Shown piece by piece: positions 1 through 10,062 of a stretch of 10,062 nt of DNA. The notes under the pieces are model-generated. The model saw nothing but the letters and a program-made list of their open reading frames with translations, was not told the origin of the DNA and made no database searches. Source of the DNA: Naegleria gruberi (Eukaryota); assembly GCA_000004985.1 (NCBI GenBank), contig GG739030.1. One strand, written 5' to 3'. The translations under genes were made by a program, and so were the position numbers. Every line of letters begins with the position of its first letter. Position 1 is the stretch's first letter.

Positions 1-3
1 TAG

Positions 4-1452
4 TCTTTTGATTATATTATTAGTATAATCTTCGGTGTTTATATTTCATTTAAAATTATTCAACCATTCTATGAGTTGATTTTCAATTTTAGTGAAGTTT
101 CTGAAATGAAATTGGAAGGATTAGAATTTAGAAATTCATTGTTCAGAGAAATTGTCATTCTTCAAGGACACTTTAAGGGGATGGTTGACAGGATTAGGCT
201 TTACAGATGGTAAGTTATCACTAAGTTTCAACATGACTAAACAATTTTTGAAATAGCTTTATTCCAAGCCACTTGATTTCAAAGATTGATGGAGGTGAAG
301 AAGTTGATAAAAGTAGAAGATCAAAAGATTCCCAACCCCAATCTAAAAGTGCTTACTCTATTGGAAAACTAGTTAAGGAAGAAATTTCTAGCAGTTTTTC
401 AAGTATTGGAAGTACTACGAAAAAACAATCTCAAACTCAACAACCAATTGATATTTTAGCAAGATTTGCCCTTCATTTGGATAAAAGAAAAGTTGGTTTT
501 GCTTGCTTACATATTGAAGGAATGAGCGCATGTATTGCCAACAATTCTTACTCTGAAACTGTTACTGTTTTAAGTGAAATTTTCAAATATGTATATGATA
601 TGAGTAAGATACATGGAGGTTCTGTTGGTAATTTTGATAATGAGACTATCACTATTTCATTCAATTCTAATATTGACACAGCAGCCCCAGAAAAGAAATC
701 TATAACATTTGCTTATGCTATTGTTAGAAAGCTTAATGGTTTATTACCATTAAAGAAGGCCATTAATCCAGAAGCGACCGATAAGGCACAAACTTTTAGA
801 GTTGCAGTTCTCTCCCAAGCTGTTTGTTGTGGTAACTTGGGTACTAATGATTTTAAGAATTTTACAATTGTTGGTAGCTTCCAAAGAAATATACTTTCCA
901 TGTTGGATCTTGCTGTTAATTTGAACATTGAAATTGTAGTCTCTGAAGAAATTAAGGCAAAAACTCATAATTTCTATCAACACAGATTTATCGATACACT
1001 TAATTTCTTAACGGAACAACAATATGGAATTCCTGAGCTAGACAAGTCGCTTAACAAGAATTGGGCATTCTTAAAGTCACCAGAGTATGGTAACAACATT
1101 CCAGAAAGTTATACTCCTTTGTCCTCAAAGCAAATTACTGAAGTGAATGTTTATGAATTTGGAGATTTTATGGAAGTTAAAGAAGATGGTAAGTATATTT
1201 TAAAATTCACTCGAAATTAATCAAATATTAGAATGGATGTATGAATTGGAGGAAAAGAAGAAGAGAAATCTTTGGCAATCCTATGGAGCTGCTTGTAATT
1301 TATTCTTTGACAAGAAATATGAAGAAGCATGTGGATTGTTGAATGAATTCTTGGATAGAACAATTCAAAATGGAATGGCAGATTTACCAACCATCAATCT
1401 ATTAGAAAAGCTTAAGAAATTACAAGAAAGAGAAAAACTAGAGCAATTGTAA
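4..1452 (+). CDS. 5'-partial receptor-type class III nucleotidyl-cyclase homology-domain protein (probably catalytically divergent). Model: exon up to 209, intron 210-256, exon 257-1188, putative intron 1189-1231, exon 1232-1452 with TAA stop at 1450-1452.
   Basis: Frame 1 is open from nt 4 to 209 (...IISIIFGVYISFKIIQPFYELIFNF...MKLEGLEFRNSLFREIVILQGHFKGMVDRIRLYR) and stops at 211-213 just inside a GTAAGT donor (210-215). Frame 0 opens at 252, just before acceptor AAATAG (251-256). Splicing gives TG+C=Cys and continues FIPSHLISKIDGGEE..., matching the 273-1220 ORF. In my manual alignment, residues about 60-230 of that ORF (VGFACLHIEGMSA...GSVGNFDNETITISF...FRVAVLSQAVCCGNLGTNDFKNFTIVGSFQRNILSMLDLAVNLNIEIVVSEE) match the class III adenylyl/guanylyl cyclase catalytic-domain consensus (FxDIxGFT...TIGDAYM...RIGIHxGxVVAGVVG...PRYCLFGDTVNxASRMES...KIxVSE). 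Codon usage matches the other genes. Confidence 0.8.
210..256 (+). other. Spliceosomal intron, 47 nt (GTAAGT...AAATAG), joining the linker exon to the cyclase-domain exon.
   Basis: Canonical GTAAGT donor at 210-215. ACTAA-type branch candidates (tcACTAAg, tgACTAAa). Only frame-compatible AG is at 255-256. The upstream frame closes at 211 and the downstream frame opens at 252. Confidence 0.75.
1189..1231 (+). other. Putative 43-nt 3' intron of gene 1 (GTAAGT...ATATTAG). It would fuse the 273-1220 ORF in frame to the 1237-1452 ORF.
   Basis: GTAAGT sits at 1189-1194 in the same AGATGgtaagt context as the first intron donor (205-215). The only AG before nt 1237 is TAG at 1229-1231. Exon 2 ends in phase 1 (G at 1188) and exon 3 starts AA|TGG|ATG, giving ...MEVKED-E-W-MYELEEKKKRNLWQSYGAACNLFFDKKYEEACGLLNEFLDR...KLEQL* with no frame break. 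Without splicing, the protein ends KFTRN* at 1220. Confidence 0.55.
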
Positions 1453-1461
1453 ATAATTCAA

Positions 1462-1491
1462 AATAAACCAAGGATTTTCAACAAAAATAAA
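1462..1491 (+). promoter_or_regulatory. Two AATAAA hexamers (1462-1467, 1486-1491) in the 88-bp spacer after gene 1. Possible 3'-end/polyadenylation signals.
   Basis: Sequence motif only. The AT-rich context makes chance occurrence likely. Confidence 0.2.
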
Positions 1492-1539
1492 TTTAGTAAA
1501 TCAACTTGATTAATCCAAGTAAGTGGTTGACACAAAAAA

Positions 1540-3025
1540 ATGAGTAAACGAAGCATGCTCAAGATTTTGAAAAGCAATTTCGGATCAAAAAAAAGAAAAC
1601 GAAAAAGAAAAAACTTGTGCTCCAAGAAATATTTTCAGATGATGTTTGTTTTGAAATAATTTCCATGATTGATGATTCGTGGTTTATTTTGAATAATTGT
1701 TCTTTGATTTCAAAACAATTCTTTCATGTGATCAAGGAACGTTCAAAACTTGTTATTGAATTTAACAAAAAATTTACAGAGAAAAGAATTAAATTATTCA
1801 TGAAAAGTCAATTTATGAATAGTATTGTTAATGTTAAATTTTCGAGAAGGTTGCTTGACTCTATAGATGAAAATGGAATTGGTGATGAAGGAGCTAAATT
1901 CATAAGTGGAATGAAACAATTAATATCACTTACTATTGGTGAAAATGAAATTGGTGATGAAGGAGCCAAATTCATAAGTGAAATGAATCAATTAACATCA
2001 CTTGATATTAGTGGAAATCGAATTGGTGATGAAGGAGCCAAATTCATAAGTGAAATGAAACAATTAAAATCACTTGATATTGGTGGAAATCAAATTGGTG
2101 ATGAAGGAGCCAAATCAATTTGTGAAATGAAACAATTAACATCACTTACTGTTTCTTACAATCAAATTGGTGATGAAGGAGCCAAATTCATAAGTGAAAT
2201 GAATCAATTAAAATCACTTAATATTGGTGGAAATCAAATTGGTGATGAAGGAGCCAAGTCAATAAGTGGAATGAAACAATTAAAATCACTTAGTGTTTAT
2301 AACAATCGAATTGGTGATGAAGGAGCCAAATTCATAAGTGGAATGAATCAATTAACATCACTTGATATTGGTGAAAATCTAATTGGTGTAGAAGGAGCCA
2401 AATCAATAATTGAAATGAAACAGTTAACATCACTTAGTATTTATAACAATCGAATTGGTGATGAAGGAGCTAAATTCATAAGAGGAATGAATCAATTAAC
2501 ATCACTTAGTGTTTTTTGCAATCAAATTGGTGATGAAGGAGCCAAATCAATAATTGAAATGAAACAATTGACATCACTTGATATTGGTGAAAATCAAATT
2601 GGTGATGAAGGAGCCAAATCAATAATTGAAATGAAACAATTGACATCACTTGATATTTATTTCAATCAAATTGGTGATGAAGGAGCCAAATCAATAAGTG
2701 AAATGAAACAGTTAACATCACTAAATATTGGTGAAAATGAAATTGGTGATGAAGGAGCCAAATCAATAAGTGAAATGAAACAATTGACATCACTTAATAT
2801 TGGTCAAAATGAAATTGGTAATGAAGGAGCTAAATTCATAAGTGGAATGAAACAATTAACATCACTTAGTGTTTATAGCAATCTAATTGGTGATGAAGGA
2901 GCCAAATCAATAAGTGAAATGAAACAATTGACATCACTTAATATTGGTGAAAATGAAATTGGTGATGAAGGAGCTAAATTCATAAGTGGAATGAAACAAT
3001 TAACATCACTTAGTGTTTATAACAA
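1540..3025 (+). CDS. F-box / leucine-rich-repeat protein (ribonuclease-inhibitor-like LRRs of 24 aa), 3' end lost in the assembly gap. The 5' end is uncertain: ATG 1540 plus a short intron is the proposed model, and the long ORF proper begins at 1617 in frame 0.
   Basis: The N-terminus FSDDVCFEIISMIDDSWFILNNCSLISKQFFHVI aligns to the F-box consensus (LPxEILxxIFSYLDxxDLLRLxxVCKxWRxL). From about 1869 onward there are 16 consecutive 24-aa units IGDEGAK[F/S]ISEMKQLTSL[D/N/S]IGENx, matching the LxxLxLxxNxIGDEGAxxL signature of RNI/NLRC3-type LRRs. The ORF is uninterrupted from 1617 to the first N at 3026. There is no in-frame ATG before the F-box (first is 1665, inside the F-box), so the start lies upstream. 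Confidence 0.85.
1869..3025 (+). repeat. Tandem array of at least 16 near-identical 72-bp units (coding 24-aa LRRs), truncated by the gap.
   Basis: Direct reading shows the motif attggtgatgaaggagc(c/t)aaat(t/c)(c)ataagtgaaatgaaacaatt(a/g)acatcactt... recurring every 72 nt with roughly 85-95% nucleotide identity. F/S variants (aaattc / aaatca) partly alternate. Confidence 0.9.
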
Positions 3026-6000
3026 NNNNNNNNNNNNNNNNNNNNNNNNNNNNNNNNNNNNNNNNNNNNNNNNNNNNNNNNNNNNNNNNNNNNNNNNNNN
3101 NNNNNNNNNNNNNNNNNNNNNNNNNNNNNNNNNNNNNNNNNNNNNNNNNNNNNNNNNNNNNNNNNNNNNNNNNNNNNNNNNNNNNNNNNNNNNNNNNNNN
3201 NNNNNNNNNNNNNNNNNNNNNNNNNNNNNNNNNNNNNNNNNNNNNNNNNNNNNNNNNNNNNNNNNNNNNNNNNNNNNNNNNNNNNNNNNNNNNNNNNNNN
3301 NNNNNNNNNNNNNNNNNNNNNNNNNNNNNNNNNNNNNNNNNNNNNNNNNNNNNNNNNNNNNNNNNNNNNNNNNNNNNNNNNNNNNNNNNNNNNNNNNNNN
3401 NNNNNNNNNNNNNNNNNNNNNNNNNNNNNNNNNNNNNNNNNNNNNNNNNNNNNNNNNNNNNNNNNNNNNNNNNNNNNNNNNNNNNNNNNNNNNNNNNNNN
3501 NNNNNNNNNNNNNNNNNNNNNNNNNNNNNNNNNNNNNNNNNNNNNNNNNNNNNNNNNNNNNNNNNNNNNNNNNNNNNNNNNNNNNNNNNNNNNNNNNNNN
3601 NNNNNNNNNNNNNNNNNNNNNNNNNNNNNNNNNNNNNNNNNNNNNNNNNNNNNNNNNNNNNNNNNNNNNNNNNNNNNNNNNNNNNNNNNNNNNNNNNNNN
3701 NNNNNNNNNNNNNNNNNNNNNNNNNNNNNNNNNNNNNNNNNNNNNNNNNNNNNNNNNNNNNNNNNNNNNNNNNNNNNNNNNNNNNNNNNNNNNNNNNNNN
3801 NNNNNNNNNNNNNNNNNNNNNNNNNNNNNNNNNNNNNNNNNNNNNNNNNNNNNNNNNNNNNNNNNNNNNNNNNNNNNNNNNNNNNNNNNNNNNNNNNNNN
3901 NNNNNNNNNNNNNNNNNNNNNNNNNNNNNNNNNNNNNNNNNNNNNNNNNNNNNNNNNNNNNNNNNNNNNNNNNNNNNNNNNNNNNNNNNNNNNNNNNNNN
4001 NNNNNNNNNNNNNNNNNNNNNNNNNNNNNNNNNNNNNNNNNNNNNNNNNNNNNNNNNNNNNNNNNNNNNNNNNNNNNNNNNNNNNNNNNNNNNNNNNNNN
4101 NNNNNNNNNNNNNNNNNNNNNNNNNNNNNNNNNNNNNNNNNNNNNNNNNNNNNNNNNNNNNNNNNNNNNNNNNNNNNNNNNNNNNNNNNNNNNNNNNNNN
4201 NNNNNNNNNNNNNNNNNNNNNNNNNNNNNNNNNNNNNNNNNNNNNNNNNNNNNNNNNNNNNNNNNNNNNNNNNNNNNNNNNNNNNNNNNNNNNNNNNNNN
4301 NNNNNNNNNNNNNNNNNNNNNNNNNNNNNNNNNNNNNNNNNNNNNNNNNNNNNNNNNNNNNNNNNNNNNNNNNNNNNNNNNNNNNNNNNNNNNNNNNNNN
4401 NNNNNNNNNNNNNNNNNNNNNNNNNNNNNNNNNNNNNNNNNNNNNNNNNNNNNNNNNNNNNNNNNNNNNNNNNNNNNNNNNNNNNNNNNNNNNNNNNNNN
4501 NNNNNNNNNNNNNNNNNNNNNNNNNNNNNNNNNNNNNNNNNNNNNNNNNNNNNNNNNNNNNNNNNNNNNNNNNNNNNNNNNNNNNNNNNNNNNNNNNNNN
4601 NNNNNNNNNNNNNNNNNNNNNNNNNNNNNNNNNNNNNNNNNNNNNNNNNNNNNNNNNNNNNNNNNNNNNNNNNNNNNNNNNNNNNNNNNNNNNNNNNNNN
4701 NNNNNNNNNNNNNNNNNNNNNNNNNNNNNNNNNNNNNNNNNNNNNNNNNNNNNNNNNNNNNNNNNNNNNNNNNNNNNNNNNNNNNNNNNNNNNNNNNNNN
4801 NNNNNNNNNNNNNNNNNNNNNNNNNNNNNNNNNNNNNNNNNNNNNNNNNNNNNNNNNNNNNNNNNNNNNNNNNNNNNNNNNNNNNNNNNNNNNNNNNNNN
4901 NNNNNNNNNNNNNNNNNNNNNNNNNNNNNNNNNNNNNNNNNNNNNNNNNNNNNNNNNNNNNNNNNNNNNNNNNNNNNNNNNNNNNNNNNNNNNNNNNNNN
5001 NNNNNNNNNNNNNNNNNNNNNNNNNNNNNNNNNNNNNNNNNNNNNNNNNNNNNNNNNNNNNNNNNNNNNNNNNNNNNNNNNNNNNNNNNNNNNNNNNNNN
5101 NNNNNNNNNNNNNNNNNNNNNNNNNNNNNNNNNNNNNNNNNNNNNNNNNNNNNNNNNNNNNNNNNNNNNNNNNNNNNNNNNNNNNNNNNNNNNNNNNNNN
5201 NNNNNNNNNNNNNNNNNNNNNNNNNNNNNNNNNNNNNNNNNNNNNNNNNNNNNNNNNNNNNNNNNNNNNNNNNNNNNNNNNNNNNNNNNNNNNNNNNNNN
5301 NNNNNNNNNNNNNNNNNNNNNNNNNNNNNNNNNNNNNNNNNNNNNNNNNNNNNNNNNNNNNNNNNNNNNNNNNNNNNNNNNNNNNNNNNNNNNNNNNNNN
5401 NNNNNNNNNNNNNNNNNNNNNNNNNNNNNNNNNNNNNNNNNNNNNNNNNNNNNNNNNNNNNNNNNNNNNNNNNNNNNNNNNNNNNNNNNNNNNNNNNNNN
5501 NNNNNNNNNNNNNNNNNNNNNNNNNNNNNNNNNNNNNNNNNNNNNNNNNNNNNNNNNNNNNNNNNNNNNNNNNNNNNNNNNNNNNNNNNNNNNNNNNNNN
5601 NNNNNNNNNNNNNNNNNNNNNNNNNNNNNNNNNNNNNNNNNNNNNNNNNNNNNNNNNNNNNNNNNNNNNNNNNNNNNNNNNNNNNNNNNNNNNNNNNNNN
5701 NNNNNNNNNNNNNNNNNNNNNNNNNNNNNNNNNNNNNNNNNNNNNNNNNNNNNNNNNNNNNNNNNNNNNNNNNNNNNNNNNNNNNNNNNNNNNNNNNNNN
5801 NNNNNNNNNNNNNNNNNNNNNNNNNNNNNNNNNNNNNNNNNNNNNNNNNNNNNNNNNNNNNNNNNNNNNNNNNNNNNNNNNNNNNNNNNNNNNNNNNNNN
5901 NNNNNNNNNNNNNNNNNNNNNNNNNNNNNNNNNNNNNNNNNNNNNNNNNNNNNNNNNNNNNNNNNNNNNNNNNNNNNNNNNNNNNNNNNNNNNNNNNNNN

Positions 6001-7203
6001 NNNNNNNNNNNNNNNNNNNNNNNNNNNNNNNNNNNNNNNNNNNNNNNNNNNNNNNNNNNNNNNNNNNNNNNNNNNNNNNNNNNNNNNNNNNNNNNNNNNN
6101 NNNNNNNNNNNNNNNNNNNNNNNNNNNNNNNNNNNNNNNNNNNNNNNNNNNNNNNNNNNNNNNNNNNNNNNNNNNNNNNNNNNNNNNNNNNNNNNNNNNN
6201 NNNNNNNNNNNNNNNNNNNNNNNNNNNNNNNNNNNNNNNNNNNNNNNNNNNNNNNNNNNNNNNNNNNNNNNNNNNNNNNNNNNNNNNNNNNNNNNNNNNN
6301 NNNNNNNNNNNNNNNNNNNNNNNNNNNNNNNNNNNNNNNNNNNNNNNNNNNNNNNNNNNNNNNNNNNNNNNNNNNNNNNNNNNNNNNNNNNNNNNNNNNN
6401 NNNNNNNNNNNNNNNNNNNNNNNNNNNNNNNNNNNNNNNNNNNNNNNNNNNNNNNNNNNNNNNNNNNNNNNNNNNNNNNNNNNNNNNNNNNNNNNNNNNN
6501 NNNNNNNNNNNNNNNNNNNNNNNNNNNNNNNNNNNNNNNNNNNNNNNNNNNNNNNNNNNNNNNNNNNNNNNNNNNNNNNNNNNNNNNNNNNNNNNNNNNN
6601 NNNNNNNNNNNNNNNNNNNNNNNNNNNNNNNNNNNNNNNNNNNNNNNNNNNNNNNNNNNNNNNNNNNNNNNNNNNNNNNNNNNNNNNNNNNNNNNNNNNN
6701 NNNNNNNNNNNNNNNNNNNNNNNNNNNNNNNNNNNNNNNNNNNNNNNNNNNNNNNNNNNNNNNNNNNNNNNNNNNNNNNNNNNNNNNNNNNNNNNNNNNN
6801 NNNNNNNNNNNNNNNNNNNNNNNNNNNNNNNNNNNNNNNNNNNNNNNNNNNNNNNNNNNNNNNNNNNNNNNNNNNNNNNNNNNNNNNNNNNNNNNNNNNN
6901 NNNNNNNNNNNNNNNNNNNNNNNNNNNNNNNNNNNNNNNNNNNNNNNNNNNNNNNNNNNNNNNNNNNNNNNNNNNNNNNNNNNNNNNNNNNNNNNNNNNN
7001 NNNNNNNNNNNNNNNNNNNNNNNNNNNNNNNNNNNNNNNNNNNNNNNNNNNNNNNNNNNNNNNNNNNNNNNNNNNNNNNNNNNNNNNNNNNNNNNNNNNN
7101 NNNNNNNNNNNNNNNNNNNNNNNNNNNNNNNNNNNNNNNNNNNNNNNNNNNNNNNNNNNNNNNNNNNNNNNNNNNNNNNNNNNNNNNNNNNNNNNNNNNN
7201 NNN
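3026..7203. other. Assembly gap (4,178 N).
   Basis: Uninterrupted run of n characters immediately after the high-identity 72-bp tandem array. Consistent with repeat collapse or scaffolding. Confidence 0.99.
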
Positions 7204-7486
7204 ACCAACTAAAAGACCATATTATGACTTGTTTTTCTCATGTTTTGTTTTCAATGAATAATTAGATGCAAATCCAATTGAAACTTTGATTTTGTAAATG
7301 GTGATCACTCTTCAATAACTTGCGAATTGATTGCTAATGAGCCCATACAGTGGATTATAGACACTAGCTTCCCATGACTTAAACTTCTTTCCTTACTCTC
7401 TCAATCAGTTGCTAATTTAGATTGTTTGTAAAATGAAATCGACTTGTTTAAATTGGTTTACAACAGAAGGATTGATTACTTGCAAG

Positions 7487-7492
7487 TATAAA
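7487..7492 (+). promoter_or_regulatory. TATAAA element about 190 bp upstream of the AKR ATG. A second TTTAAAAA lies at about 7604-7611. The A-rich leader runs 7630-7680.
   Basis: Motif only. gtataaacagtataacc followed by the A/C-rich leader aaaacaataaaaaaacaaacaaacaacacaatcagaagaaacgtaagATG, which is typical of fungal or protist 5' UTRs. Confidence 0.25.
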
Positions 7493-7680
7493 CAGTATAA
7501 CCAACTAACAATTGAACAAATGGATGACATCTAACTTATTGACAAAGTACGAGTACATTTTCCAAAAGACCCTCGCTCGCACTTTCGTACAAATTCTCTT
7601 TCCTTTAAAAAGAAACTCTAGAGTACAATTAACAAAACAATAAAAAAACAAACAAACAACACAATCAGAAGAAACGTAAG

Positions 7681-8799
7681 ATGAAGTATGAAAATTTGGG
7701 TAACACTGGCATGAAAGTCTCCAAAATCTGTCTCGGATGCATGAGTTTCGGCTCACCAAAATGGTTTGATTGGGTTTTGGAAGAACCAGAATCAATGATC
7801 ATTCTCAAGAAGGCCTGGGAGTTGGGTATTAACTTCTTCGACACTGCCAACCTTTATTCGAATGGTGAAAGTGAGAGAATTTTGGGTAAATTCATTAGGG
7901 AGAATAACATTCCGAGAGAGGAAGTTGTTATTGCTACTAAGGTTTTTGGTCCGGTTGACAAGAGTGGAGAACAAAGGTACCTACCGTTGAGTGATGATAA
8001 GAAGGTGAATACTCATGGATTGTCGAGAAAGCATATTATGCATGCTGTTGAGGAATCATTGGAAAGATTGGGAACAGATTGTAAGTATTGTTGAAAATTG
8101 CAAAGTTCAGTTGACTGAATATTGTAAACAGACATTGATTTATATATTATTCATCGTTGGGATCCAGACACTCCTATTGAAGAAACCATGGAAACTTTAC
8201 ATGATTTGGTAAAATCTGGAAAGGTCAGATATATTGGTGCCTCTTTAATGTTTGCTTGGCAATTTGCTAAAGCTCAACATTATGCTGATAAGAAGGGATT
8301 GACCAAGTTTGTTTCCATGCAAAATCTCTATCATTTACTGTATAGAGAAGAGGAAAGAGACATGATTCCAATGTGTTTGGATCAGGGAGTTTCCTTAACT
8401 CCATATAGTCCACTTGCTAAGGGAATTTTGGCAAGAGCTCACGAATTTGTCAACTCTGAGAAAACAAGCAATGATGAGGATGAGGATGAGAAATCCAAGA
8501 GAGCAAATTCAGATTTCATTCAAAAACAATTCCAAGAAACCATAACTGAAGGTGATAAGGAAAATTTGAGAAGAGTTTCAGAATTGGCTAATAAGAAGAA
8601 TGTCTCACCAGCTCAAATTGCTATTGCTTGGCTATTGAAGAAGCCAGGAGTTACCAGTCCAATTGTTGGTGCCACAAAAGTATCGAATATTGAATCGTCT
8701 ATTGCTGCTTTGGATATTGAACTCACCACTGAGGAAGTCAAATATTTGGATGAATCCTACACAGCCAAAGCACCTCATCCAGTTGGTGTTAGAAAGTAA
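7681..8799 (+). CDS. Aldo-keto reductase (aryl-alcohol dehydrogenase / K+ channel beta-subunit-like subfamily). Complete: join(7681..8080, 8132..8799), 355 aa.
   Basis: N-terminus MKYENLGNTGMKVSKICLGCMSFG fits the LGxSGLxVSxLxLGxMxFG start of the AKR family. Catalytic tetrad candidates are Asp (FFDTANLYSNGESE), Tyr (NLYSNG), Lys (VIATKVFG) and His (IIHRWD). Splicing 8080|8132 gives ...[45 protein letters not shown], matching the conserved AKR block LGxDYIDLYxxHxxDxxTPxEET...AL..L...GK.RYIG.S. ATG at 7681 with A at -3. TAA stop at 8797-8799. Confidence 0.93.
8081..8131 (+). other. Spliceosomal intron, 51 nt, phase 1 (GTAAGT...AACAG), within the AKR gene.
   Basis: GTAAGT at 8081-8086. Branch-like ttgaCTGAAt. 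AG at 8130-8131. T(8080)+AC(8132-8133) gives TAC=Tyr, restoring the conserved DYIDLY motif. The unspliced frame hits a stop after GTDCKYC. Confidence 0.85.
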
Positions 8800-9067
8800 T
8801 ATATACATTCGTTATCAAGAATCCTATCATGCTGGATTAAATATCATTTCGAACTGTTTATTATAATTTCAAAAGAAACAAAACCCATGACCAATTTTAA
8901 CAAATTTTCCATCATTTACATCTGAATTATCAAATAGCACTTCAATGAAGAGGATTATCACATTATTTTATTAAAAATTTTATTAATTATTAAATTAACT
9001 CTGTTAAAGCTTTAGTTTTAACACGAAAGGCAATAATATTCAGTATTAAGATTTTAAGGTATTGAAT

Positions 9068-9185
9068 GGCTACGGCCATATCACGATGAATGCACCTCAT
9101 CCCGTCCGATTTGAGAAGTTAAGCATCGTCGAGCCACATCAGTACTGAGGTTGGAGACAACTTGGGAACCTGTGGTGCTGTAGTC
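9068..9185 (+). rRNA. 5S ribosomal RNA gene (118 nt).
   Basis: GGCTACGGCCATATCACGATGAATGCACCTCATCCCGTCCGATTTGAGAAGTTAAGCATCGTCGAGCCACATCAGTACTGAGGTTGGAGACAACTTGGGAACCTGTGGTGCTGTAGTC aligns along its length to eukaryotic 5S (GCCTACGGCCATACC...CCCGTCCGATC...GAAGTTAAGC...GTTAGTACT...GGGAGAC...TGGGAA.ACC.GGTGCTGTAGGC). The 5' GGCTACGGC pairs with the 3' GCTGTAGTC (9 bp helix I including 2 G-U). An internal box A-like GAAGTTAAGC is present. Confidence 0.92.
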
Positions 9186-9192
9186 TTTTTTT
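9186..9192 (+). terminator. RNA polymerase III terminator (T7 run) immediately 3' of the 5S gene.
   Basis: ttttttt directly after the 5S 3' end. Pol III terminates at runs of at least 4-5 T (established). Confidence 0.8.
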
Positions 9193-9278
9193 CTTTCTGT
9201 TGCTGTAAAATAGAAACAAGTCGATCCTTGTTTTTCTATTAGATACTTCTAATTGTTTCACATATTATATACATTTAT

Positions 9279-10062
9279 TTATTGTTGAATATTCTCATTG
9301 TAAACTAACCGCCTCCTTTCTTCCTCCTCATCATTAATAGTTTGCTGCTGAGAAACTTTGGCCTTTCCAAATCTATTAATGAAAATTCTTTGATACCATT
9401 TCATTTTCCTCACTGGAAAAACTTGTTGCAACAAAATTGCCATCAACAATGAAGGAATCATTAAAATGGAAACTAAAACTGAACCAAAAAAAATTAATAA
9501 CCAAGTTGGGATGGAATCTGTTGCATGTGTTGCGTAATAATTGAGAATTTGATTGATTTCTTGTTTGGTTTGGGGTTCAGATAGTTTTGTAATGGTTGCA
9601 TTGATAATTTCTGAAACAATTGTGGAAAAGTCAATGTCATTTTGTTTGAGAGATGATTTGACAGTTTCAATAACTTGTTGATTAGTGAATTGTTGGGCCA
9701 TTTGATTAATGATTGGTTGGGAATACTGTAATGAGTTTTGGAATAATTGATTGAATGGAATATTATTGAGAAGTGTTGAAATATTTTGAGAGATTGCTGA
9801 CATGGCATTATTTGTTACTGCTGTGATTTGATTCTTGTTGAGTACGTCGATAATGGCTTGTGAAACTTGAAATCTAATATTTGTTGTTACATTGTTTACA
9901 ACATTTTCAATTGCTTGTTCCAATTTTTTGAAGAGTTTTTCGAAAATATTCGAATCAGCTAGAGAAGGAAGGGAAAACCTTTCGTCCACAGATCTTCCAC
10001 TGCCGGTGTGATGAGGATTATGATTAGGAAGGTGATTGTTAGGCTCGGAGAGTGCGGTTTTA
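9279..10062 (-). CDS. Hypothetical Q/N-rich membrane protein with a single C-proximal transmembrane helix. N-terminus lies beyond the window end.
   Basis: Minus-strand frame open from the window edge (10061) to TAA at 9281-9279, at least 260 codons. In-window translation: ...KTALSEPNNHLPNHNPHHTGSGRSVDERFSLPSLADS...PTWLLIFFGSVLVSILMIPSLLMAILLQQVFPVRKMKWYQRIF...EEEERRRLVYNENIQQ*. A 25-residue hydrophobic stretch is followed by a basic stop-transfer sequence (RKMKWYQR). Codon usage (caa, aat, att, ttg) matches the other genes. An open frame this long is unlikely by chance in 67% AT DNA. Confidence 0.65.
   Translation of the reverse strand, partial: KTALSEPNNHLPNHNPHHTGSGRSVDERFSLPSLADSNIFEKLFKKLEQAIENVVNNVTTNIRFQVSQAIIDVLNKNQITAVTNNAMSAISQNISTLLNNIPFNQLFQNSLQYSQPIINQMAQQFTNQQVIETVKSSLKQNDIDFSTIVSEIINATITKLSEPQTKQEINQILNYYATHATDSIPTWLLIFFGSVLVSILMIPSLLMAILLQQVFPVRKMKWYQRIFINRFGKAKVSQQQTINDEEEERRRLVYNENIQQ

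Follow-up and report, generated by a model that had tools for sequence, protein, structure and literature searches.

The window analysed in this study, a complete 10,062-bp scaffold of Naegleria gruberi NEG-M, probably holds an unannotated gene of a lineage-expanded F-box-like/LRR family. The part that is visible represents the 5' two-thirds or less of this gene. Protein type, repeat length and repetitiveness are all already known, and the gene is an ordinary member of a large N. gruberi family, whose proteins start with a short basic stretch, followed by a divergent F-box-like module of three helices, a pair of degenerate cap repeats and a solenoid of 24-residue leucine-rich repeats (LRRs) of the GALA/CC type. 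Its repeat array is unusually long and uniform through recent local duplications. Neither the gene nor the family overturns current understanding, and the locus flags a gene of the N. gruberi reference that is unannotated and broken by a gap and a one-nucleotide slip. The following features were delineated:

1540..1616, plus strand: probable true 5' coding end, with an ATG at 1540 that opens MSKRSMLKILKSNFGSKK..., one base out of frame with the remaining gene
1623..1751, plus strand: divergent F-box-like module (QEIFSDDVCFEIISMIDDSWFILNNCSLISKQFFHVIKERSKL), from paralogue alignment, profile searches and AF2
1749..1877, plus strand: linker with two degenerate cap repeats (strand 45-49, helix 55-62, strand 70-75), from AF2 and paralogue conservation
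1878..3025, plus strand: 16 tandem 72-bp units (24 amino acids each) of GALA/CC-type LRRs, the last unit cut by the gap
2742-2885 and 2886-3025, plus strand: most recent duplication, two 144-bp (two-unit) blocks with 137 of 140 positions identical (98%)
3026..7203, no strand: scaffold gap of 4,178 N, within which lie the remaining array and the gene's 3' end
7204..7680, no strand: right flank of the gap, covered by six-frame translation and an approximate search with the unit consensus

The array consists, as predicted, of 16 LRR units of exactly 72 bp. An ATTGGT..GAAGGAGC motif recurs at 1878, 1950 and onwards to 2958, always at a spacing of exactly 72 bp, unit 16 stops at 68 bp with the N run beginning at 3026, and TRF reports a single array (1868-3012, period 72, 15.9 copies, 84% matches, 0% indels, score 1527). 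The consensus of the units reads IGDEGAKFISEMKQLTSLNIGENQ. Individual units are 83-96% identical to their consensus, and the nucleotide identity of unit pairs averages 85.9% (median 84.7%, range 77.8-98.6%), so that the 85-95% given in the original prediction was a fair, if slightly optimistic, figure. Phenylalanine and serine share unit position 8 evenly (8:8) and in the order F F F S F S F S F S S S S F S F, which agrees with the partial alternation noted earlier; mean unit identity amounts to 88.8% at lag 2 versus 83.9% at lag 1. Three tight clusters (units 2, 3, 5 and 7; units 10, 12, 13 and 15; units 9, 14 and 16) reach 92-99% identity, with 99% for the pair 13/15 and 97% for the pair 14/16.

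That the units are related at the level of DNA and not only of protein, as had been proposed, is evident from these identities and from position-specific codons: GGT occupies position 2 and GGA position 5 in 16 of 16 units, TCA is likewise found in 16 of 16 and ATA in 15 of 16, whereas in the neighbouring genes these amino acids are encoded by a variety of codons. An environmental paralogous locus, L001, has the codon pattern in common with the array, and units compared across the two loci are 78.5% identical versus 86% within the array, in a DNA-level comparison that covers this locus only, the N. gruberi paralogues P0001 and P0002 having been compared as proteins. Because the position-specific codons recur in the paralogous locus, a large share of the DNA similarity is inherited and only part of it is recent, true recency applying to some of the unit clusters only. 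As the sole cause of the DNA identity, concerted evolution across the whole array is thereby rejected, and the suggestion of "very recent" homogenisation, which is appropriate for some unit clusters, was otherwise overstated. The array probably grew through tandem duplications that were local and kept a 72-bp or 144-bp register, via unequal crossing-over or replication slippage, and these left the positional clusters of near-identical units.

Comparison of synonymous and nonsynonymous change across the units, a check suggested at the outset, gave an overall dN/dS of 1.1, composed of 14 codons per unit with a pN of 0.009 versus a pS of 0.17 and 10 codons per unit with a pN of 0.33 versus a pS of 0.07, where the choice of the variable codons is circular and gene conversion violates the independence that pairwise dN/dS assumes. 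Amino-acid change is probably limited to about ten positions per unit around a constant structural core. Uniqueness of this repetitiveness was considered and rejected: many related LRR proteins show self-identities of 0.73-0.85 at their best period of 22-29 residues, and the N. gruberi kinase-LRR protein P0011 has 0.83 at lag 24.

The visible reading frame comprises 469 codons, all open. Its nominal start at 1617 is a GTG, a mechanical choice of the ORF finder; as assembled, no in-frame ATG lies upstream of the F-box-like region, and the first one falls inside helix 1. Paralogues P0001 and P0002 begin with MSKRS.../...KKKKLV..QEIFSDD, matching a start at the ATG at 1540. The A8 run at 1586-1593 is the likely slip site, and one A added to it yields MSKRSMLKILKSNFGSKKKKTKKKKLVLQEIFSDD..., after which the frame is open to 3025. 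On the other side, it is probably the long stretch of near-identical units that halted the assembler, which would account for the scaffold gap. Dividing its 4,178 positions by 72 gives 58, which confirms the arithmetic of the original prediction, with 58 additional units as an upper bound in which neither the absent 3' part of the gene nor intergenic DNA within the gap is allowed for. A 1,882-amino-acid ORF spanning the gap was rejected as an artefact of translated N, continuity across the gap being meaningless. Six-frame translation of 7204-7680 and the approximate search with the unit consensus revealed no LRR-like units and no long ORFs there, and this stretch is probably the intergenic or promoter region of the downstream AKR gene. 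Once spliced, the AKR agrees exactly with N. gruberi NAEGRDRAFT_44898, and two further copies of it, with 96% and about 98.5% identity, are found in the genome. GC content is 32%, similar to the flanking intron-containing eukaryotic genes.

Since no in-frame ATG precedes the module, either a pseudogene or a sequencing error at the slip site is conceivable. A pseudogene or assembly artefact would imply a leftover haplotig or collapsed repeat, in which either the slip is real or the sequence is a chimeric consensus of several paralogous arrays, possibly with two contigs joined by mate pairs that were misplaced within LRR repeats. We consider this unlikely. It would be in line with the one-nucleotide slip that puts the homologous ATG out of frame with the F-box-like module, with a scaffold of only 10,062 bp in total, with the overall dN/dS of about 1.1 and with the two other copies of the neighbouring AKR (96%, about 98.5%), which point to a duplicated or haplotypic region; moreover, no protein or gene model for this gene was found among the proteins retrieved by sequence search. 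However, 469 codons remain open in a genome of 32% GC and the array is free of any indel, 14 of the 24 codons per unit are under strong purifying selection (pN 0.009 vs pS 0.17), unlike those of a decaying pseudogene, and the positional order of the unit clusters is more readily expected of a real array than of a random chimera. One missing A in an A8 run is, furthermore, a common base-calling error.

The N-terminal module is most likely a divergent F-box, a reading that draws on family-level sequence evidence and that would give the protein an F-box plus LRR layout. Module (residues 3-45), cap repeats (45-87) and regular LRRs (from 88) follow each other in the F-box-linker-LRR order. The Pfam F-box check suggested for this copy failed, as neither the interval 1617-1877 nor the 80-residue module produced an F-box match even at E<=1 to E<=10, whereas its relatives and distant proteins speak for the proposed adaptor layout. 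The module is 83-84% identical to that of NAEGRDRAFT_66053 (P0001), NAEGRDRAFT_64117 (P0002) and the environmental P0012/L001, and 12 of the 15 N. gruberi paralogues fetched have kept it. Over 13 aligned modules, the Pfam F-box-like profile matched 11 at E<=10 and seven at E<=0.01 (best 1.4e-5), and the Pfam F-box profile five at E<=0.01. Among 1.84 billion representatives, the module profile recovered 134 matches, 112 of them outside the seed, and of these non-seed proteins 51 carry F-box-like and 40 F-box matches (E<=0.001); besides these, only LRR families recur. The Pfam F-box stretches of P0162 and of the N. gruberi protein P0165 fall within the part that the profile matches and score above the gathering cutoff, which P0165 exceeds for both F-box and F-box-like; XP_002673871.1 is an example of a Pfam-positive family member. 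Searched against PDB, the module profile matched no proteins other than FBXO42 and FBXO44, in both cases over the F-box and weakly (E 0.07 and 0.33). With the module alignment A1 as query, a word-index search produced no scored match, which reflects a limit of the index, as the exhaustive profile search gave P0002 at 2e-26; a word-index homologue search with the N-terminus and first unit likewise gave no word-sharing candidates.

AF2, run with 20 sequences, predicted three helices (pLDDT 71-85), which span residues 8-16, 22-31 and 33-42 when counted from the ORF start at 1617. The two fold searches were dominated by generic LRR solenoids and neither ranked F-box proteins first, so that this structural test does not discriminate. 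The Leu-Pro at the start of helix 1 is near-universal in F-boxes. Here it is replaced by Phe-Ser, with the Ser aligned to the Pro of FBXO42, and the conserved Pro is present in two of the 13 aligned modules. Within the alignment C28 is invariant, and D, E, L, S, Q and K are nearly so.

This substitution also enters into a second alternative, which we regard as quite improbable: the protein could be a LRR scaffold outside SCF complexes, whose F-box-derived module lost Skp1 binding (Leu-Pro to Phe-Ser) and now serves as an N-terminal cap or other interaction module, in a protein that would be a general scaffold for protein-protein interactions. Such a role would fit a copy that stays under the Pfam threshold, the scarcity of the conserved Pro (only two of 13 modules) and fold searches that do not single out F-box proteins. 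The 24-residue units are, in addition, attached to other domains in N. gruberi, as in the kinase-LRR protein P0011, and stand without any N-terminal module in P0084 and P0086. Yet the module is strongly conserved over many paralogues, with C28 invariant, which implies a maintained function; F-box is the sole non-LRR family that the module profile recovers, and the N. gruberi protein P0165 passes the Pfam gathering cutoff for F-box and F-box-like alike.

Analogy with the Ralstonia GALA/RipG effectors and with FBXL proteins suggests an SCF adaptor role for the divergent F-box: the docking site of the module would be Skp1 in an SCF (Skp1-Cul1-Rbx1) ubiquitin ligase, and the substrate would be bound by the LRR solenoid, with Skp1 binding, ubiquitin-ligase function and any substrate all inferred. 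The FBXL receptors of SCF ligases (Skp2, FBXL2, FBXL17, TIR1/COI1) show the same order of F-box three-helix module, linker or degenerate repeats and LRR solenoid, and the convex side of their solenoid is alpha-helical, as in the layout of this protein. However, their repeats are irregular and typically 26 residues long (CC-LRR), none of them has a long near-identical array, and their F-boxes clear the Pfam thresholds, unlike that of this copy.

The repeats are LRRs, with a Pfam LRR_6 match at E=1.7e-85 across 15 stretches, as anticipated, and 15 LxxLxLxxNxL motifs that are spaced by 24 residues in 14 of 14 cases. AF2 models the solenoid with a pLDDT above 95 and one strand plus one helix per unit. 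The repeats belong to the 24-residue GALA/CC-LRR class, which typically stands behind F-boxes, and not to the RNI type originally assigned: RI-like (RNI/NLRC3-type) LRRs comprise 28-29 residues with the pattern LxxLxLxx(N/C)xLxxxgoxxLxxoLxxzxxx (PMC5976695), while self-identity in this array is 0.05 at lags 28 and 29 versus 0.73 at lag 24. Nor is a unit of 24 residues unusual, as had been thought; the LRR_6 profile itself has 24 positions, and of 98 related repetitive proteins 64 have a period of 24, more than any other.

GALA and GL repeats form a 24-residue branch of the CC-LRR subfamily (PMC2244805, Kajava et al. 2008), and the GALA-LRR signature comprises N3, I-G-D at positions 5-7, Gly/Ala at 9, A10 and apolar residues at 13, 19, 22 and 24 (PMC2244805). 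The renumbered consensus x x N x I G D E G A K S I S E M K Q L T S L N I fits this signature, with N, I, G, G and A each conserved in 15-16 of 16 units and D in 14 of 16. The equivalent of GAxALA reads GAK[F/S]IS here, and position 16, which has no conserved residue in the GALA state and Leu in the GL state (PMC2244805), is Met in 16 of 16 units. With Met16 the units match the published description of neither state, GALA or GL, and are best called GALA-like. Backbone geometry resembles that of solved GALA LRR domains, the nearest structures being RipG4 and LegL1.

The GALA/RipG type III effectors of Ralstonia solanacearum likewise have an N-terminal F-box followed by 24-residue LRRs, and GALA/GL-LRR proteins have the unit signature N3, I5-G6-D7, G9, A10 and apolar 13/19/22/24 in common with the array. 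Unlike GALA/RipG, the present gene is eukaryotic and native and does not encode a secreted bacterial effector; besides the altered GAxALA motif and the invariant Met at position 16, its F-box is more divergent (FS for LP) and its units are far more alike in DNA. LegL1 of Legionella pneumophila ("Gala protein type 1, 3 or 4", PDB 4xa9), a Dot/Icm effector, has no F-box. That a GALA/LegL-like gene was acquired from an intracellular bacterium is highly improbable: although the closest solved structures (RipG4, LegL1) and many LRR proteins among the sequence matches are bacterial, the GC content of 32% is similar to that of the eukaryotic, intron-bearing genes on either side, no fewer than 16 paralogues are spread over different large N. 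gruberi scaffolds, structures of protist members have simply not been solved, and the inferred direction of GALA transfer is from eukaryotes to bacteria (PMC2244805).

The combination of F-box and GALA-type LRRs was previously described mainly in Ralstonia effectors and in a few plants and protists, GL-LRR plus F-box proteins being already recorded in protists (PMC2244805). Our results indicate that 24-residue GALA-type LRRs behind an F-box constitute a sizeable native family in a heterolobosean amoeba and that a divergent F-box, mostly missed by standard Pfam annotation, is present in the Naegleria "LRR_RI / predicted protein" family. This bears on the suggested eukaryotic origin of the bacterial GALA and LegL effectors. 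Literature searches returned nothing specific on a Naegleria F-box/LRR family or Naegleria Skp1. It is a speculative and rather doubtful idea that the F-box-like/GALA-type LRR family of this bacterivorous amoeba forms a rapidly diversifying intracellular recognition repertoire. If so, the family could target intracellular bacterial or viral proteins for ubiquitination, and new specificities could arise via 72/144-bp unequal crossing-over combined with diversifying selection at about ten positions per unit. This locus would then be among the most actively expanding members, with allelic variation in unit number expected between strains, and the bacterial GALA/LegL effectors would be mimics of this host family.

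The multigene family that had been postulated does exist: the best protein matches are all N. gruberi paralogues, with 62-71% identity, and paralogues with both the 24-residue unit and the module are found in this genome. The closest of them, P0001 and P0002, together with the environmental P0012/L001, have the MSKRS start, the 24-residue unit and the position-specific codons in common with this gene. They differ from it in having only about 4-7 units, with a lag-24 identity of 0.50-0.69 versus 0.84 in this gene, and in their neighbouring genes.

The leucine-rich repeat (LRR) gene of this window probably encodes an FBXL-like SCF substrate receptor, native to Naegleria, in which the LRR solenoid is of the GALA type; recent expansion of its array would have stalled the assembly. 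The protein type is already known; the gene itself is unannotated in N. gruberi. The features concerned are the following:

1-1452 (+): upstream gene, open at the scaffold 5' end, with an intron at about 1189-1231 and a 305-aa exon
1623-1751 (+): F-box-like N-terminal module, in an ORF listed from 1617
1878-3025 (+): LRR array
3026-7203: gap of 4,178 N
7681-8799 (+): aldo-keto reductase (AKR) gene, exons 7681-8080 and 8132-8799, intron 8081-8131, spliced product 355 aa
9068-9186 (+): solitary 5S rRNA gene between the AKR gene and the minus-strand ORF (Rfam RF00001, 105 bits, full length)
9279-9989 (-): ORF of 236 aa whose C-terminal segment is hydrophobic, listed start GTG at 9989
2086-2877 of a 4,116-bp contig in ENA metagenome ERZ929261: close relative on an environmental Naegleria-like contig (L001)

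As the original prediction held, the array comprises 16 tandem 72-bp LRR units: their starts lie at 1878, 1950 and so on to 2958, every spacing being exactly 72 bp, and TRF reports a single array of period 72 with 15.9 copies, 84% matches and zero indels. Pairwise nucleotide identity of the units averages 86% (range 78-99%), and each unit is 83-96% identical to the consensus; the unit consensus is IGDEGAKFISEMKQLTSLNIGENQ. At unit position 8 the predicted F and S variants are equally frequent (8:8), with alternation in stretches of the array. Unit 16 is interrupted by the gap, and a search to the right of the gap found neither an LRR unit nor a long ORF; the array end and the 3' end of the gene lie inside it. 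A 1,882-aa 'ORF' spanning the gap was rejected as an artefact of translated N.

Codon choice shows common descent of the units at the DNA level. Glycine is encoded by GGT in 16/16 units at position 2 and by GGA in 16/16 at position 5; Ser17 is TCA in all 16, and Ile9 (ATA) and Leu18 (CTT) are each fixed in 15/16, whereas both neighbouring genes use many codons for the amino acids fixed to one codon in the units. Together with the mean identity, these position-specific codons bear out the claim that the units are related at the DNA level and not only as protein. The L001 locus (GC 33%, adjoined by a eukaryotic gelsolin gene) encodes the same N-terminal module with only about four LRR units before the frame leaves the repeat, so that unit number varies widely in the subfamily. 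Its four units carry the same position-specific codons, and unit nucleotide identity is 78.5% between window and L001, compared with 86% among the window units and 74% among those of L001. To a large extent the units are thus alike by inheritance from the ancestral unit of the subfamily, and only the excess is recent. Very recent expansion or homogenisation had been proposed, and the part that stands is local: the unit clusters {2,3,5,7}, {10,12,13,15} and {9,14,16} share 92-99% identity inside each, mean unit identity rises from 83.9% at lag 1 to 88.8% at lag 2, and the final two 144-bp blocks are identical at 137/140 positions. Tandem duplication that proceeded stepwise, in registers of one and two units, is indicated by this pattern, rather than array-wide homogenisation. 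The array probably grew by unequal crossing-over or slippage, and its recent expansion would have stalled the assembly.

Overall dN/dS across units, a check proposed with the original prediction, is 1.1. Divergence is sharply divided between codons: fourteen per unit show pN 0.009 versus pS 0.17, and ten (unit positions 8, 10, 11, 13, 16, 19-22 and 24) show pN 0.33 versus pS 0.07. Two points weaken the estimate, namely that the variable codons were picked for being variable and that unit pairs are not independent under gene conversion. In the secondary structure predicted by AF2, positions 19-22 and 24 form the beta-strand end and ascending loop on the concave side, and positions 8-13 the helix end and descending loop. 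Such a distribution of variable positions is typical of LRR recognition surfaces.

A pseudogene or an assembly artefact is an unlikely alternative. The assembled sequence contains no in-frame ATG upstream of the module; an ATG at 1540 encodes MSKRSMLKIL..., homologous to the start of the paralogue P0001 (NAEGRDRAFT_66053; MSKRSRIRKIL...), but is one base out of frame. An extra A in the A8 run at 1586-1593 yields MSKRSMLKILKSNFGSKKKKTKKKKLVLQEIFSDD..., in agreement with P0001 (...KAKKKKLV...QEIFSDD), and this frame stays open to 3025. A 1-nt frame slip, probably located in this homopolymer, cuts the homologous start codon off from the rest of the gene; it may be either an error of base calling or a mutation that truly disables the gene. 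A long-dead pseudogene is disfavoured by the strong constraint on the unit core (pN 0.009 versus pS 0.17). A protein search retrieved no model of the LRR gene, the top match being only 68% identical.

The LRR identity of the units was confirmed with Pfam LRR_6, which matches the protein in 15 stretches (E=1.7e-85). An AF2 model of the N-terminus and six units forms a regular strand/helix solenoid (pLDDT >95), and the closest solved structures in a fold search are two GALA-type LRR domains, RipG4 (Ralstonia) and LegL1 (Legionella). The GALA-type signature consists of Asn3, Ile5-Gly6-Asp7, Gly/Ala9, Ala10 and apolar residues at 13, 19, 22 and 24; an F-box is present in about 600 of the updated CC-LRR subfamily's roughly 1,000 proteins, and protists have GL-LRR proteins with an F-box (Kajava et al. 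2008, PMC2244805). The renumbered window unit, xxNxIGDEGAKSISEMKQLTSLNI, agrees at all defining positions, but has GAK[F/S]IS where GALA has GAxALA, and carries an invariant Met at position 16. The earlier label 'RNI-type' is wrong, because RI-like repeats measure 28-29 residues (PMC5976695) while the window protein repeats at lag 24 (self-identity 0.73, versus 0.05 at lag 28/29). Nor is a 24-residue unit unusual, as had been supposed: the LRR_6 model itself has 24 positions, and 24 is the commonest period among related repetitive proteins (64/98).

The claimed F-box holds through homology with paralogues, and not through a Pfam match of this copy, whose 87-residue N-terminus alone gives no F-box match at E<=1, nor at the laxer E<=10; the Pfam check set out with the original prediction thus fails for this copy. 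Two N. gruberi paralogues, P0001 and P0002 (NAEGRDRAFT_64117), nevertheless share 83-84% identity with this N-terminus, and those of ten more paralogues can be aligned to it, with the common pattern F[SP]DD[IV]c[FY]EIlSFlD...nCxL[IV]SKQWxxVI. Among the 13 modules, 7 match Pfam F-box-like at E<=0.01, the best at 1.4e-5, and 11 do so when the threshold is relaxed to E<=10; for Pfam F-box the counts are 5 and 10. A module profile retrieved only FBXO42 and FBXO44 from the PDB, weakly (E 0.07 and 0.33) and aligned over their F-boxes, and 134 proteins at E<=0.001 from 1.84 billion representatives. The 112 non-seed matches include 51 with F-box-like and 40 with F-box at E<=0.001, and no recurring domain besides F-box and LRR families; in the proteins checked, the profile-matched stretch encloses the Pfam F-box stretch, which scores above the gathering cutoff for P0162 and for N. 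gruberi P0165 (XP_002673871.1). AF2, run on a 20-sequence alignment, predicts helices at residues 8-16, 22-31 and 33-42 (pLDDT 71-85), with two degenerate cap repeats after them. Against an F-box speaks the replacement of the canonical Leu-Pro by Phe-Ser, and fold searches do not single out an F-box, as the LRR part dominates. By homology the module is a divergent F-box with putative Skp1 binding; a scaffold protein, its F-box a relic that no longer binds Skp1, appears slightly less likely than a pseudogene or artefact.

At least 16 proteins of N. gruberi, encoded on different scaffolds, carry the module, which makes this a multigene family, a point that the original prediction had proposed to check. 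Within it, the window array is the most regular (lag-24 identity 0.84, all 14 spacings 24 residues; F-box-like paralogues 0.22-0.69). On a par with it is the N. gruberi protein P0011 (820 aa, lag-24 identity 0.83), in which the same 24-residue units, near-identical to one another, are joined to a protein kinase domain instead of the F-box-like module. Evidently the unit is a mobile building block in this genome. Best-period self-identity reaches 0.73-0.85 in many LRR proteins across the database.

The whole window is one small NEG-M assembly scaffold, made of contigs 1-3025 and 7204-10062 bridged by the N run. The window is eukaryotic: GC is 32% without the gap and GT-AG introns are present. 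A bacterial origin of the gene is very improbable. The 305-aa exon of the upstream gene has no Pfam match and no more than a weak PDB match, to the class III adenylate cyclase CyaB (E 0.041, residues 97-226); the gene may contain a degenerate cyclase-homology domain. For the minus-strand ORF a Pfam search gave nothing convincing, and its true start may lie further upstream, towards or past the scaffold 3' end. The spliced AKR protein is a 100% match to N. gruberi NAEGRDRAFT_44898 (XP_002668519.1). Since AKR has two more near-identical genomic copies, NAEGRDRAFT_73544 (96% identity, on a 290-kb scaffold) and NAEGRDRAFT_29714 (~98.5%, with a 14-aa deletion in an acidic loop, on a 1.0-Mb scaffold), the mini-scaffold lies in recently duplicated or haplotypic sequence; the copies point to either segmental duplication of recent date or diverged haplotypes.
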